A stretch of DNA of 64,000 bases, taken from the IMG/VR virus record IMGVR_UViG_3300032007_000018, positions 136,445-200,444 of that record; one strand, 5' to 3'. The notes under the pieces are model-generated. The model searched no databases and was not told where the DNA came from. It saw only the letters and a list, made by a program, of their open reading frames with translations. The translations under genes were made by a program, and so were the position numbers. Positions 1,115 to 64,000 of this stretch are shown here, one piece after another (positions within the stretch are counted from its first letter, which is position 1; each line of letters opens with the position of its first letter). Origin of the DNA: a virus.

Positions 1115-2110
1115 ATGGGAAAAAAGATTGATTTAACAAATTAGCGTTTTGGAAAATTATTAGTATTAAAAGAAGGCGGACGAGACTCTTCTAATAAGAT
1201 TTTATGGATTTGTAAATGCGATTGCGGTAATATTAAAGAAGTCCGCGGCAGTGATTTAAGAAGCGGTAAAATTCTTTCTTGTGGTTGTTTTGGGAAACAA
1301 CAAAGAATTATTGGAAAACAAAAGTATTTACAAAACAAAGGAATTGGTTTTCGTAATGACTTAACAAATAAAAAATTTGGAAAATTATTAGTGCTAGAAT
1401 TCAATTAGGAAGAAACACAAAAACAAAGAGAAAAACGAAAAAATTATTCTAGTTTGTGGAAATGCAAATGCGATTGTGGAAATATAATTAACGTAGAAGG
1501 ATCTGCTTTAACAAGCGGACATACTAAATCATGTGGTTGTTTGCAAAAGGAATTGGCATCTAAGAATATGAAATAGAATATTTAGCCAATAGGAGCAACA
1601 ACTAGATTTATAGATTTAACAAATAAAAAATTTGGAAACTTAACAGTCTTAGAGCGTTGTTTAAAGAATAATCAACAAAATAAGCCTCGCTGGATTTGTA
1701 AATGCGAATGTGGAAATATAGTAATTGTTGATGGAAGTTCTTTAAGACAAGGACTAACTTAGTCTTGTGGTTGTATAGGTAATTCATTAGGTCAAAATAA
1801 AATTAGGCAAATTTTATTAGATAATCATATATTATTTTAGCAAGAAGTAAAATTTAAAGACTTGAAAGATTAGTCTTATTTACGTTTTGATTTTGGCATA
1901 TATGATTCAAATAAAAATCTTGTTAAATTAATTGAATATGATGGAAGATAGCACACAGACGAAAGAAGTGCTTGGCATAATGAAGAATTAATCAAGCATG
2001 ACTAGATGAAAAATGAGTATTGTAAAAATCATAATATTCCATTACAAAGAATCTCTTATTTAGACTATGATAAAATTGATTTAGAATATCTTTTGGACGA
2101 GGTAGAATAA
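1115..2110 (+). CDS. homing-endonuclease-like protein: repeated W-x-C-K/Q-C-D-C-G-N ... CGC zinc-finger modules plus C-terminal Vsr/DUF559-like PD-(D/E)xK domain; 8 in-frame TAG codons
   Basis: ATG after AAGGAG; single frame readable through to TAA at 2108 only if TAG is sense; C-terminus EYDGR*H... aligns to EFDGAQHF of the intact paralogue at 22033-23169. Confidence 0.5.
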
Positions 2111-2158
2111 TTTTCTACCTCGCTTTTTTATTTATGACACAAGAGGAATCTTCTTTCT

Positions 2159-2212
2159 TTGATTTTTTATAAAAAATATATTATAATATTTATAGAAAAT
2201 AAAGATAAGGAG
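2159..2212 (+). promoter_or_regulatory. sigma70-like promoter repeat (TTGATT -35, 17-nt spacer, TATAAT -10, AAGGAG SD)
   Basis: first of about 20 near-identical copies of tttgatttttataaaaaatatattataatatatatagaaaataaagataaggag. Confidence 0.6.
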
Positions 2213-2221
2213 TTGTTCAAT

Positions 2222-2485
2222 ATGTTCCTTGGTTATCACGATAGTCCTAGCTGCGATTTTGATCTTTGGAGTCCTAATCCTACCAGATGGGGTAATAACG
2301 CGATTGAGAATCGTGCATTCTCTCCGTTTGCAAAGCATCAGACCGAGCTGGATGAAATAGTCGAAATGATTGCGACCGGTAGCACTTCCTTTGAGCTGGA
2401 CGATGATTTCGGTCCTTCTGATCTGGAGTATATCCAGAATGAGCTTGAAAAACGTGGTATTTATGCCAATTTATCATTATCTTAA
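2222..2485 (+). CDS. hypothetical protein
   Basis: ATG 10 nt after AAGGAG of promoter/SD repeat; ends TAA. Confidence 0.5.
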   Translation: MFLGYHDSPSCDFDLWSPNPTRWGNNAIENRAFSPFAKHQTELDEIVEMIATGSTSFELDDDFGPSDLEYIQNELEKRGIYANLSLS

Positions 2486-2659
2486 AAGGGATGGTCATAT
2501 GAATGAAGCATAGACTTTAGAACAAAAAGTCAAATTGTATGTTGAATGGACTCCAGATAATCCATATTATGGTAATTATAAATATTTAGATGAACTTGGG
2601 ATGCAATATGGATATGGAGTTGTCTTTAAAGAAATTAAGCGTTAGAAAAAAGATTATAT

Positions 2660-2690
2660 TTGATTTTTATAAAAAATTTTGTTATAATAT
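2660..2690 (+). promoter_or_regulatory. promoter repeat copy driving the tRNA array
   Basis: TTGATT...gttataat about 35 nt upstream of tRNA-Tyr. Confidence 0.55.
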
Positions 2691-2723
2691 ATATACAAGA
2701 TAAGAAAAGAAAGAAAAAAGTAT

Positions 2724-2807
2724 GGGTCGGTATGCAAATTGGTGAAGCAAGCGGTCTGTAAAATCGTGACGTAAGAGACGTTGTTGGTTCAAGTCCAACC
2801 CGGCCCA
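2724..2807 (+). tRNA. tRNA-Tyr (GTA), class II, CCA encoded
   Basis: acceptor GGGTCGG/CCGGCCC, anticodon loop cuGUAaa, long variable arm, T-arm GTTGG-TTCAAGT-CCAAC. Confidence 0.6.
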
Positions 2808-2881
2808 CCAAAACTCCTTCACAACGTCTTGCGCGTTTACCCTACAGGAGTATAAACAAGAAGGAAGAACGCGCTACATAT

Positions 2882-60902: not shown

Positions 60903-60948
60903 AGGTATCAATTAGATACCTTACATTTTTTATTAGGAGGGATTACAT

Positions 60949-62598
60949 ATGGCTAAAGTATTAATGATAGGCCACGCCACCGGAGATGAAAAAGGCGGTG
61001 CTTCTGGTGGTGCGGCTGGCGATTAGACCGGAAGAGAAGTATGTATATAGAAATGGTATTCAAGTGGAAGTGGATGGAATTTTGTATTACGTCCAAAATC
61101 ACCAATAATAGCAGAAAAAATGGCCGCTGCTTGCGAATGGATATGTGCTAGTAATTTAGTGGGATACGATCAAAGTCAAAGAAATACTCTTTATAATGAA
61201 TTAGAAAAGTTAAATTGGGATTATAAAAAACTGACTACTAAATGCGAAACAGACTGTTCCGCTTTTATGGGGACTTGCGCAAAAATTGCTGGTTCTAATG
61301 TATAGAGAGTCTATGGTAATTGTTGTTACACCGGAAATCAAGTGGATTTATTTATGAAGACTGGAGATTTTATTAAACTCACAGATCCTAAATATTTAAA
61401 TCAATCTACTTATTTACAACGAGGTGATGTATTGGTCCGTCATAATCCTATAACAAATGGTGGACATACTGCTATGGTTTTAGGCTGGAAAGAAGACGGA
61501 GTAATAACTCCAATATCAACAATTAATAATGGATCATTAACAAAAACATAGATCAAAGCAATGCAAGCATATTACAATACAACTGCGGATGGTCAATGGG
61601 GACCAAATTCTACTAAAGCTGCCGGTGGTCTTGGAGCAGATGAAGCTTGGAAAAAATATAGTGCAGCTGTGCCAGGAGATATAGACTTTGGAACTGGATA
61701 CATTTGCCGCAAAATTCCATTATCTAAAATAGAAAAAATTCAATACTATACAAATACTTCTAAAACAAAAACTTTAGATATTATAATGCAAGAAACAGGT
61801 GCAGACTATGGTATTAATGGTGTTCTATACGATATGCGTACCTGGAAACCTTGTGAAAATATAAAAGCAAACGGAGTAATTATTGCTTCGCAGCCAGCTT
61901 GGTCTAATGAAGGTTTTTATTGGACAACCGGTGCTGATATAAAGTGGGGTTATGTCCCTCTTGAAGCAGGAAAAGCTGAAAATTATATTCCAGGAAATGG
62001 CTTAATAACCAACTTAAATTATAAATTAGCAGTAAATTGGAATGCTGAATTATCCGGGAATCGCGGTCGTACATTAGTCGGTCTTGATAATGCTAACAAT
62101 GTAGTAATTTATCAATCTTTAGATGGAACAGCCGCCGCATTAACGCCAATAAAAGCCAGAGATAAAATGGTTCAATTAAATTGTGTAAAGGGTGCTTTAA
62201 ATCTTGATGGTGGTTCTTCTGTTGGCTGGTATGACAAAGCCCACCATTTATATAATAAACCAGGTAAGGGAACTGTTTAGAACTATATTTTATTTTATTT
62301 TAAAGGAAATAATAGTATAGATACTTCACCTTCAACTAAACCTTCACAAAATTCAAATCCATATCCTGTTCCTGCTAGAACATTAAACAAAGGCTCTAAG
62401 GGAGAAGATGTAAAATATGTTCAATATATTTTATATAAGATGGGATACGGAAAAGGCACATTGTCAAGTTTTGTAGATGGTGATTTTGGATCAAATACTG
62501 AAACTTCTGTTAAAATGTTTCAAAAATCAGCAGGATTAAAGCAAGACGGAATTGTTGGAGTAAGAACCCTATCATAGTTGCAGAAATGGAAGGGATAA
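60949..62598 (+). CDS. endolysin: CHAP/NlpC-P60-like peptidase plus NAGPA (phosphodiester glycosidase) domain plus PG_binding_1 domain; about 6 in-frame TAG
   Basis: tracked ORFs 61120, 61342 and 61561 share one frame with ATG 60949; NLDGGSS motif; C-terminal DGDFGSNTETSVKMFQKSAGLKQDGIVG. Confidence 0.5.
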
Positions 62599-62602
62599 AA
62601 TT

Positions 62603-62950
62603 ATGAAATTATTTAGCAGAAAAGATAGAAAAAAGAAAGAATTTTCAAAAGCTCTTTTAATCCAAGAATCAATTTTGATTTGGATTATTACTTTATCTTT
62701 TGTGGTTTTGGCATTCTTGTGTGTATTTAAACTATTTGATGCATCATTTATGTGGCTATCTGTTCTTCCAACAGTGGCATGGGGAGCGTATGGTGTAAGT
62801 TAGGCTTGTTATTATAAAAAAGCAAGAGCAGAGAATACAAAAGATGGGATAAAATACGATACAGTGATGACTGATTTATTAAATTCATTACCTAATGATG
62901 AAGAATGTCCAAAAGAAATAGAGGATGGCAACGCAGATTATAATGTTTGA
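62603..62950 (+). CDS. holin-like membrane protein, one in-frame TAG; ends TGA then TAA
   Basis: two hydrophobic helices immediately downstream of the endolysin. Confidence 0.35.
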
Positions 62951-62963
62951 TAAGGAGGGATAT

Positions 62964-63335
62964 TATGTCAGAAGAACGTGATATGACCCCTGTAGAATTA
63001 CCATATACTTTTACACCTTCTAGTGAATTTCCATATGAACATTATAACACTGAAAAAATTAATCCATTACCATATGATTAGTTTTTAGTATATAATACTG
63101 TTGGAAGCGTTTGGAGAGAAGATTTTTTACTTACTGAATCTTCTACTGAAGAACCAGAAGAATATGAATTACAACATAATAAAGAAATAACAAAACATGA
63201 AATGAATTATATAATACCTGGAGAATTAAATACAAAAAATCCTATACCATTATACCAAGCTGGTCCAAGTGTAGAAGAATTAATTTCTCGAATTAATCCT
63301 CAACCATCTTCAAGCGAAGAAAAGGAAACCGAATA
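62964..63335 (+). CDS. hypothetical acidic protein, one in-frame TAG
   Basis: ATG after AAGGAGGGATATTATG; ends TAA. Confidence 0.3.
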
Positions 63336-63396
63336 ATTACAAGGCTTTAGAATAATTCATTATTTGTTTTATTCTAAAGCCTTTTTTTATTTATGA

Positions 63397-63445
63397 GTTG
63401 ATTTTCATAGAAAATTATTATATAATAAAATAAAAAAGGAATGAT
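63397..63445 (+). promoter_or_regulatory. promoter repeat copy
   Basis: TTGATTTTCATAGAAAATTATTATATAAT ... AAGGAATG. Confidence 0.5.
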
Positions 63446-63449
63446 TTTC

Positions 63450-64000
63450 TATGAAATGGGTAGAAACTATATCTCCAGAAGCGGTCTTTAAAGCATAGTG
63501 TCTTGCGGCCTCCGCTAAACTGGAGCGCGAAAACGGAAAAACAATATGCCCACCGCAGGATTAGATTTTTAGAGCGTTAGAATTAACTCCACCGGATAAG
63601 GTGAAAGTAGTTATTATTGGACAAGATCCATATCATACTCCAGGTCAAGCGAATGGATTAGCCTTCTCTATTGCGAATGGTAATCCTATTCAGCCGAGTT
63701 TGCGAAATATTTTTAAAGAATTGGTAAGTGATATTGGATGCGATATGCCAACTACGACTGATTTAACTCCCTGGGCCGAACAAGGTGTGCTACTTCTAAA
63801 TGCTTCTTTAACAGTTGAAGCGCATAAGGCCAATAGTCATTCTGGCTGGGGATGGGACACTTTCACTGGTGAAGTTTTTGATGCTTGCGCAAAGATGGAA
63901 CAACCTATTGTTTTCCTCGCGTGGGGTAATTTCGCGCATGAAATAGTCTACAAAAGTTTTCCAAAAGCAACAACAAATTGGAAGAATATAATAAATGAAC
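63450..64000 (+). CDS. ung: uracil-DNA glycosylase (family 1), partial at window end, in-frame TAGs
   Basis: VVIIGQDPYHTPGQANGLAFS matches the UDG motif GQDPYH; 3 TAG within the first 60 codons. Confidence 0.55.

Follow-up and report, generated by a model that had tools for sequence, protein, structure and literature searches.

Introduction

Phages that read the amber codon TAG as an amino acid were reportedly first described by Ivanova and co-workers in 2014. In Escherichia coli, supE provides a tRNA-Gln(CUA) that inserts glutamine at UAG in competition with release factor 1 (RF1). The present work deals with in-frame TAG codons in a 64-kb stretch of viral DNA (positions 136,445 to 200,444 of IMG/VR record IMGVR_UViG_3300032007_000018; this whole stretch is called the window in the following), in which TAG very probably specifies glutamine (genetic code 15) and is read by two phage-encoded suppressor tRNAs. 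Gut phages with TAG recoding have been surveyed, and clade means of 26-71% recoded genes have been reported; recoding is typically partial and concerns lysis and structural genes, and in a TGA-recoded clade preferential recoding also affects a homing endonuclease (Borges et al., bioRxiv 10.1101/2021.08.26.457843). For crAss-like phages, metaproteomic data have confirmed that TAG is read as glutamine (Peters et al. 2022, PMC9523058). The part of the description of phAss-1 (proposed Phassvirus) considered here portrays a large gut phage with in-frame TAG codons in about 41 open reading frames (ORFs), hallmark genes included, and with several suppressor tRNA genes (Babkin et al. 2023, PMC10607447).

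The window resembles the code-15 gut phages in the apparent use of TAG for glutamine, a phage-borne tRNA(CUA), partial recoding (41%), AT richness and the lack of TAG terminators, and its lysis and structural genes are recoded just as theirs are. As far as the account of phAss-1 considered here goes, large size, a gut origin, in-frame TAG codons and several suppressors are points of likeness, while the GenBank phage collection yielded no similarity to the window. Comparison with GenBank phages gave distant matches at the protein level only and none at the nucleotide level, which sets the window apart as a different lineage. Unlike the surveyed code-15 phages, it possesses an unusually large tRNA array (33 genes) with two tandem suppressors, it also recodes putative DNA-repair and auxiliary genes, namely those for uracil-DNA glycosylase (UDG), DenV, PhoH and a radical SAM enzyme (rSAM), and its TAG-free gene class is GC-richer, uses CAG and is enriched in RNA-repair and vault-like genes. 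The difference to supE is evident: there, a mutant host allele mediates low-level suppression, whereas the suppressors in the window are phage genes that would serve the routine decoding of about 100 codons.

Judged from its sequence, the window is a further lineage of the established TAG-to-glutamine recoding in phages, without a close relative in GenBank. No new phenomenon is involved, because public protein catalogues already hold TAG-to-Q translations. In practical terms, the genome needs translation table 15, as table 11 shatters about 40% of its genes, including those for the endolysin, tail and structural proteins, rSAM, PhoH, UDG and six endonucleases. What is added is a recoded lineage that probably infects Clostridia, is rich in tRNA genes and carries a tandem suppressor pair. 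Its unusually clean split between genes that use TAG and CAG-using genes that avoid it could help to decide between recoding as a means of timing and recoding as a side effect of AT pressure.

In-frame TAG codons and translation termination

Gene calling relied on a simple scorer of codon usage, applied to three codes (standard, TAG as sense and TGA as sense). With TAG as a sense codon, 76 ORFs resulted, and 31 of these (41%) hold 101 in-frame TAG codons, in keeping with the original prediction that TAG is a sense codon, most likely for glutamine, in a large share of the genes. About eight of the 101 fall into the first 20 or so codons of ORFs with uncertain starts (e.g. codon 6 of the ORF at 11148, codon 11 at 13146 and codon 21 at 59575) and may lie upstream of the real start; at least 90 are robustly internal. 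Not a single TAA or TGA occurs in the approximately 7,990 codons of the TAG-bearing ORFs as compared with a six-frame share of TAA plus TGA of about 4%, and interruption by TAG only is therefore not due to chance. When the translation tables were compared, as had been proposed along with the prediction, coding density amounted to 78% with TAG as sense codon, against 61% under the standard code; reading TGA as sense gave 57%. Coverage by ORFs of at least 100 amino acids increased from 67 to 87% once TAG was treated as sense.

Furthermore, conserved domains extend across the TAG codons. The Pfam domain Radical_SAM (residues 18-176) crosses TAG26 and TAG34, Glycos_transf_2 (residues 6-118) crosses TAG111, UDPG_MGDP_dh (residues 472-555) crosses TAG501 and TAG530, PhoH (residues 244-436) crosses TAG334 and TAG414, and ELLD (residues 7-178) crosses TAG26, TAG34 and TAG119. 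NAGPA, PG_binding_1, Big_13 and UDG domains also traverse TAG codons, and alignments with solved structures (UDG, PhoH, and UDP-glucose and GDP-mannose dehydrogenases) pass through them without gaps. Three assemblies that are independent of one another (ERZ27256887 from ENA, in two contigs, and SRR9008756 and SRR9008757 from Logan) match the DNA of the window at 99.85-100% identity; the TAG codons are hence not assembly errors. Gene lengths deposited in the public collection for these contigs equal those of our TAG-sense calls, and the stored proteins carry Q at every TAG; code 15 had thus already been applied by a pipeline.

Four relatives were available for comparison: two related recoded phages, L006 (ERZ28613020, 79.6 kb) and L008 (DRR595522), a 13-kb IMG/VR relative with approximately 70-82% nucleotide identity to the window (L012), and L086 (NCBI GCA_024712465.1). 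In all four, ORF coverage rises when TAG, and not when TGA, is read as sense.

Genes in the TAG-sense call end with TAA (60) or TGA (15). Close to C-termini, TAG is a sense codon in orthologues: codon 564 of a fusion of a GT2 glycosyltransferase with UDP-glucose dehydrogenase (GT2-UGDH) is occupied by TAG or Q, with a K between it and the stop, and codon 543 of the endolysin, located within PG_binding_1, is CAA in the orthologue. These observations support the view, already put forward in the prediction, that no gene needs TAG as a stop and that TAG is probably dispensable as a terminator, a metallophosphatase gene at 48902-49777 being the sole ambiguous case. This gene ends with TAG-TAA, and nowhere else might TAG still serve as a terminator; the outcome differs by one residue.

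Other reassignments were considered as well. Reassignment of TGA (code 4 or 25) was rejected, given the coding density of 57%, the 15 genes ending with TGA and the lack of a tRNA with anticodon UCA. Reassignment of TAA was likewise considered and rejected.

The amino acid specified by TAG

For each of three proteins, the endolysin (60949..62598, + strand), rSAM (15883..17175, + strand) and GT2-UGDH (32714..34414, - strand), about 120 homologues were aligned and the residues in the TAG columns were recorded. At conserved columns, TAG faces glutamine just as predicted: Q is present in 111 of 116 homologues at site 26 of the endolysin, in 119 of 119 at site 34 of rSAM, where it is invariant, and in 80 of 95 at site 4 of GT2-UGDH. 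At endolysin site 34, 57 homologues have Q and 49 have R. Log2-odds summed over 21 usable sites reached +30.5 for Q, with K as next best at -25 and every other residue at -25 or below, among them E (-29), H (-43) and W (-88).

The risk of circularity in such a test is real, as some of the database homologues have themselves been translated with TAG as Q. It was countered by resorting to NCBI-sourced proteins, to codons from bacterial genomes and to alignments in which TAG was scored as X. Homologues from NCBI records have Q at the scored sites. Opposite TAG26 of the endolysin, all 72 loci from bacterial genomes or metagenome-assembled genomes (MAGs), almost all of them from Clostridia, have a glutamine codon (CAG 60, CAA 12), and opposite site 34 the bacterial loci provide 33 glutamine and 30 arginine codons. 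This part of the analysis is not circular. With TAG scored as X in orthologues from L006 and L008, it stands opposite Q in 21 of 48 cases and opposite any other residue in at most three. In the same alignments, 11.7% of all Q face TAG, as compared to at most 1.3% for each of K, E, R, D, N, S, T, A and L. All four TAG codons of the Ig-like protein encoded at 34926-37547 are opposite CAA or CAG in the orthologue.

A last line of evidence comes from endonuclease paralogues within the window. Their motif E[FY]DGxQH contains Q in the TAG-free copy (22033-23169, EFDGAQHF) and TAG in the six other copies, and in this respect our alignment agrees with the one cited in the original prediction. The reading of TAG as a sense codon for glutamine is thus supported by four independent lines, i.e. 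homologue columns, bacterial codons, interchange between orthologues, and paralogues. Taken together, TAG in all likelihood stands for glutamine and would be read via the two phage suppressor tRNAs according to code 15.

Suppressor tRNAs and the tRNA array

The two tRNA genes with anticodon CUA, on which the original prediction is silent, were identified by ARAGORN on the + strand at 19380..19455 (suppressor 1; Rfam tRNA score 38.2 bits) and 19664..19738 (suppressor 2; 57.1 bits). Both form an ordinary cloverleaf, have G73 and an encoded CCA end and score above the Rfam tRNA threshold. The first pair of the acceptor stem is A1-U72 in suppressor 1 and a U1xU72 mismatch in suppressor 2. Bacterial tRNA-Gln (like tRNA-Trp) is usually marked at its acceptor end by a weak first pair together with G73 as discriminator, and suppressors with anticodon CUA readily accept glutamine. 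Among the 33 tRNAs of the array, this combination is confined to both suppressors, both tRNA-Gln and the tRNA-Trp. The genes for tRNA-Gln(UUG) and tRNA-Gln(CUG), detected by ARAGORN at 15071..15225 on the + strand, both have A1-U72 and G73, and the acceptor stems of suppressor 1 (ACCGGTG) and tRNA-Gln(CUG) (ACCGACG) are alike. Global pairwise identity among the tRNAs gave no isotype for the suppressors; the acceptor-end features alone were informative. On these grounds the suppressors resemble tRNA-Gln and are presumably charged with glutamine.

The tandem arrangement is retained in L012, where suppressor 2 is 100% identical in flanking DNA of about 82% identity and where the orthologue of suppressor 1 shows a compensatory change in the T-stem, which speaks for the functionality of both. 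At 109 nt upstream of suppressor 2 there is a promoter-like site of the sigma-70 type close to the consensus (TTGACT-17-TG-TATAAT, 19527..19555, + strand), recognized by consensus match only and putatively functional as a promoter.

A gene for a Thg1-like enzyme (18152-18988) is situated approximately 0.7 kb upstream of suppressor 2 with its U1xU72 mismatch. Members of the Thg1-like family can rebuild tRNA 5' ends with the 3' strand as template. That the enzyme might be functionally linked to the mismatch in suppressor 2 is pure speculation.

Three ARAGORN calls, Ser-tga (4323-4395), Phe-gaa2 (8639-8718) and Met-cat2 (9723-9795), lack an encoded CCA and exhibit poor acceptor pairing in a simple end-based check. 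Two of the three pass Rfam with shifted ends, and the boundaries or the authenticity of all three may have to be reconsidered.

Gene-class specificity of recoding

Recoding in the window is partial and specific for gene classes, and relatives show the same split. Over all ORFs, 17% of the glutamine-type codons are TAG, and within the TAG-bearing genes 32%; in the 45 ORFs devoid of TAG, there are 265 CAA or CAG codons. Mean GC content at third codon positions (GC3) is 0.25 in TAG-bearing and 0.37 in TAG-free genes, many of which reach 0.5-0.59 (Mann-Whitney p = 7e-4), and the ratio CAG/(CAA+CAG) is 0.22 in the former and 0.53 in the latter. The TAG-bearing set comprises the genes for the endolysin and the two small proteins following it, PIN-PhoH, UDG, DenV, both GT2 enzymes, the 873-residue Ig-like protein, small tail-region proteins, rSAM and the Cys-rich protein next to it, as well as six copies of the endonuclease. 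To the TAG-free, GC-richer set belong, among others, genes for the Thg1-like enzyme, a DUF2828/TROVE protein with vWA domain, a homologue of the major vault protein (MVP), an RNA ligase, an AAA_33 kinase, an exonuclease, a metallophosphatase and a flotillin. TAG is also missing from many small promoter-proximal genes. In-frame counts hence agree with the predicted absence of TAG from the MVP, TROVE-vWA, RNA ligase and kinase genes and from most of the small promoter-proximal ones.

Composition does not explain everything, because several AT-rich genes, too, avoid TAG beyond chance. An RlaP-like nucleotidyltransferase and a NADAR protein are encoded by TAG-free yet AT-rich genes (GC3 0.25-0.28). 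The AT-rich avoiders, i.e. the intact endonuclease copy and the genes at 38213-39478, 47115, 26697, 28101 and 49761, have 53 glutamine codons, none of which is TAG; at a rate of 32%, a calculation by hand from these counts yields P of about 1e-9. As for the relatives, the TROVE orthologue in L012 has 13 CAG, no CAA and no TAG, and in L086 the kinase and phosphoesterase genes are devoid of TAG, while those for PhoH, the endolysin and the next protein contain five, five and three, respectively.

Several of the TAG-free genes are unusual for a phage. They encode the Thg1-like tRNA 5'-end enzyme already mentioned (18152-18988), the DUF2828/TROVE-like protein with vWA domain (24075-25619), the MVP homologue with MVP shoulder and Vault_3 (41212-43626), the RlaP-like nucleotidyltransferase (47115-47966), the RNA ligase (51257-52447), the AAA_33 kinase (55163-55732) and the flotillin/SPFH protein (56599-58062). 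GC3 is 0.50-0.59 for all of them except the RlaP-like gene (0.25). Together with the 33 tRNA genes they look like a module for RNA/tRNA repair and ribonucleoproteins.

Promoter-like motifs and the timing of expression

A motif of the form TTGATT/TTGACT-N17-TATAAT recurs in intergenic regions on the + strand, 18-40 nt upstream of many protein and tRNA genes, at about 24 sites. Consensus matches include those at 2660, 4594, 6682, 9182, 13809, 15815, 18090, 19527, 20950, 23171, 27248, 40379, 44453, 45688, 50361, 54710 and 63398. The motif probably represents the main sigma-70-type promoter class of the phage. Promoter-like sites as a whole are not more frequent than expected (54 in the window versus 47.9 after shuffling), and only the near-consensus intergenic subset is noteworthy. 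The motif precedes TAG-free genes (4653, 6746, the Thg1-like gene, 44510, 45738, 50407 and 54774) and equally TAG-rich ones (rSAM, two endonucleases and UDG). Any delay caused by TAG would therefore act at the level of translation and not via one promoter class.

The original prediction saw in the distribution of TAG the pattern of standard-code early and recoded late genes. Gene-class-specific use of TAG and its conservation in relatives partly support this; the promoter-like motif, however, is shared by both classes. Recoding affects the lysis cassette and the structural block, RNA-repair-like and small promoter-proximal genes being TAG-free; yet rSAM, UDG, DenV and PhoH are recoded, too. 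We regard the early-standard, late-recoded interpretation as a plausible hypothesis. A delay at the level of translation would agree with a published model, according to which early genes follow the standard code and suppressors later unlock the recoded ones (Borges et al., bioRxiv 10.1101/2021.08.26.457843).

The findings are best accounted for by the following scheme. The window is part of the genome of a large tailed phage that very probably operates on code 15. Its CUA suppressors would pair with UAG and, presumably charged by the glutamine-charging pathway of the host, would compete with host RF1 such that ribosomes read through, with TAA and TGA staying in place as terminators. AT-rich genes spend about a third of their glutamine codons on TAG and hardly any on CAG. 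TAG could then act as a gate in translation, the products of TAG-bearing genes being withheld until the suppressor tRNAs have built up. We consider such a gating role about as likely as not. Two observations weigh against it, namely the occurrence of the same promoter-like motif in front of TAG-rich and TAG-free genes, and the covariation of TAG avoidance with GC content, the cause of which could be non-regulatory.

The latter point leads to a serious rival for the pattern, albeit not for the decoding. TAG may be a sense codon the uneven spread of which has no regulatory role: with suppressors at hand, AT pressure would let CAG drift to TAG by C-to-T transition in AT-rich genes, and GC-richer genes would be TAG-free through their composition or a more recent foreign origin rather than through early expression. 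This is conceivable, although we tend to consider it unlikely. It fits the GC3 of about 0.25 and the near absence of CAG in TAG-bearing genes, the dominance of CAG in the many TAG-free genes with GC3 of 0.5-0.59 and the single promoter-like motif in front of both classes, and low GC content has been proposed as an evolutionary precursor of recoding (Borges et al., bioRxiv 10.1101/2021.08.26.457843). On the other hand, such a drift does not explain the AT-rich genes with no TAG among 53 glutamine codons. Moreover, TAG accounts for 32% of the glutamine codons in TAG-bearing genes, which exceeds the 24-27% predicted from the share of G-ending codons for Lys and Glu, and the split between the classes is kept in L012 and L086.

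Alternative readings of TAG

That TAG is decoded as a residue other than glutamine, be it Lys, Glu, His, Trp, Tyr or pyrrolysine, is very improbable. Several findings nevertheless count against an assignment to glutamine. Some TAG sites face K, E, D, H or A in homologues. For example, codon 38 of UDG faces Asp in bacterial UDGs and codon 26 of rSAM mostly Ala in homologues. The TAG at codon 16 of the DenV-like gene, for which alignment with T4 endonuclease V had been advanced as evidence for glutamine, is opposite His (CAT) in the closest orthologue, that of L012, and the T4 enzyme presumably has His16 at this position as well; the argument from DenV is thus lost. ARAGORN assigns the name 'Pyl' to both CUA tRNAs, their acceptor-end features (A1-U72 and G73) are also common to tRNA-Trp, and their overall identity to the phage tRNA-Gln genes is modest (at most 64%). 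Finally, no release factor, aminoacyl-tRNA synthetase or other factor for a code change was detected among the window proteins scanned.

TAG sites that face other residues are to be expected at variable positions and carry no information. The summed log2-odds are strongly negative for Lys, Glu, His and Trp and positive for Gln, the bacterial loci opposite TAG26 have CAG or CAA in 72 of 72 cases, and the codons paired with TAG in orthologues are mostly CAA or CAG. Decoding as pyrrolysine was rejected: the label 'Pyl' derives from the anticodon alone, the cloverleaves are ordinary, no domains for pyrrolysine biosynthesis or PylS were found in the window proteins scanned, and TAG occurs in 31 genes at positions that match glutamine.

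A reading of TAG as a persisting stop codon, with the broken ORFs as pseudogenes, split genes or sequencing and assembly errors, can draw on the fragmentation of ORFs under table 11 and on a phosphoesterase of 193 amino acids in one Logan call, but is for practical purposes refuted by 101 TAG versus no TAA or TGA in some 7,990 codons, by domains and homologue alignments that run in frame over TAG, by the essential lysis and structure genes among those affected, by identical TAG codons in three independent assemblies with a like pattern in four related phages, and by the presence of suppressor tRNAs.

Endonuclease paralogues and a metallophosphoesterase

Seven HNH/homing-endonuclease-like paralogues with repeated N-terminal modules (...DLTGx[KR]FGxLTV.../CxCxCG) are encoded in the window. 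The copy at 1115..2110 (+ strand, nine TAG codons) belongs to the HNH/homing endonuclease family in PHROGs. Paralogue alignment connects it with the copies at 23270..24043 (six TAG), 25699..26595 (three TAG), 40494..41207 (eight TAG, corresponding to 80% of its glutamine-type codons) and 48016..48918 (five TAG), all on the + strand, and with the one at 43649..44377 on the - strand (seven TAG). Seven recoded endonucleases had been predicted; six indeed carry three to nine TAG codons, whereas the seventh, at 22033..23169 (+ strand; paralogue alignment and PHROGs), is the only TAG-free copy, with 11 CAA.

The prediction also held all phosphatases to be TAG-free, which does not apply: apart from the TAG-TAA ending of the gene at 48902-49777, a metallophosphoesterase gene at 55714..56508 (+ strand; Pfam, orthologue in L086) has TAG at codons 194, 209 and 224. 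All three lie in the linker in front of a C-terminal, Cys-rich module of 40 amino acids (56386-56505). Under table 11, the protein stops at TAG after 193 residues, the form present in one Logan gene call, and the read-through product has 264 residues. The module (NCDKCVWQGNECPGP...KRDPPDGGYYG) is found at the extreme C-terminus of unrelated metagenomic proteins, among them orthologous metallophosphoesterases, an AAA kinase, a homing-endonuclease-like protein and many proteins of 44-144 amino acids, and in L086 phosphoesterase and module form a single TAG-free ORF. Conservation of the module elsewhere and the uninterrupted ORF in L086 indicate that the 264-residue product represents the real gene.

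One may go further and envisage TAG as a switch in translation that works irrespective of the transcription class of a gene: standard decoding would yield the bare phosphoesterase and decoding by the suppressors the module-tagged isoform, the state of the code during infection deciding between the two. This idea takes up the common promoter-like motif of both gene classes, the TAG-free state of one of seven endonucleases and the linker TAG codons of the phosphoesterase; we consider it doubtful.

Genome context and further features

The window has a GC content of 38.9%. Its + strand carries the array of 33 tRNA genes detected by ARAGORN between 2.7 and 22 kb, a block of tail/structural and glycosyltransferase genes occupies the - strand from 28 to 40 kb, and further blocks on the + strand hold the RNA-repair-like genes, PhoH, the endolysin and UDG. 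Past the end of the window, genes follow for RNase H, GyrB, GyrA and an NAD-dependent ligase, and the phage must therefore be large. The gyrB gene, located at L004 4897-8078 (about 65.7-68.9 kb in window coordinates), appears to be split by a gene for a GIY-YIG endonuclease, and the C-terminal domain of GyrB is called as a separate ORF of 66 amino acids.

Among GenBank phages, megablast with 24 kb of the window revealed no nucleotide relative, and tblastn with the endolysin returned only distant domain matches of less than 40% identity. Scans of IMG/VR with peptide patterns of the endolysin and with a 30-mer of MVP remained without match; a 27-mer of the suppressor tRNA was the only IMG/VR query to retrieve a relative (L012). 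The closest genomic relatives of the endolysin stem from gut Clostridia MAGs with CAG or CAA at the glutamine site, a hint that the host probably belongs to the gut Clostridia.

With regard to individual recoded genes, rSAM was assigned by Pfam and has eight TAG codons, one of them inside the motif CNL-TAG-CKYC. It is followed on the + strand by the gene for the Cys-rich protein (17156..17758, three TAG), an ORF without family match. The pyrimidine-dimer glycosylase of the DenV type (27643..28056, + strand), whose single TAG has been discussed above, owes its assignment to a precomputed Pfam match (Pyr_excise, PF03013); phmmer against PDB did not reach T4 endonuclease V. Within the - strand block, a GT2 glycosyltransferase with one TAG (28786..29796; homology and orthologue comparison) accompanies GT2-UGDH with its eight TAG codons, across which Pfam and PDB alignments extend. 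The Ig-like (Big_13) structural protein of 873 amino acids (34926..37547, four TAG) was recognized by Pfam and its orthologue, a small protein (37809..38183, four TAG) has an orthologue and a weak tail-tip-like family match, and a protein of 109 amino acids (39973..40302, four TAG) is an ORF call.

On the + strand, the PhoH2-like PIN-PhoH protein (59575..60903; Pfam, PDB 3b85, orthologues) has robust TAG codons at 334 and 414, and the TAG at codon 21 is probably upstream of the true start. It is followed by the endolysin (ELLD, NAGPA and PG_binding_1; six TAG; Pfam and homologue columns) and by two small genes (62603..63336) with one TAG each, the products of which comprise 115 amino acids, probably a membrane or holin-like protein according to hydrophobic segments read by eye, and 129 amino acids. 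The UDG gene (63451..63999, + strand, two TAG; Pfam and PDB alignment) is cut by the end of the window and encodes 232 amino acids in the full contig.

In the tail-fibre region, two adjacent paralogues of 225 and 271 amino acids with LRR_5-type repeats are encoded at 29851-31373. Here the ENA assembly is unlike the window, the repeat copies being 86-88% identical, which suggests a variable or recombining receptor-binding locus.

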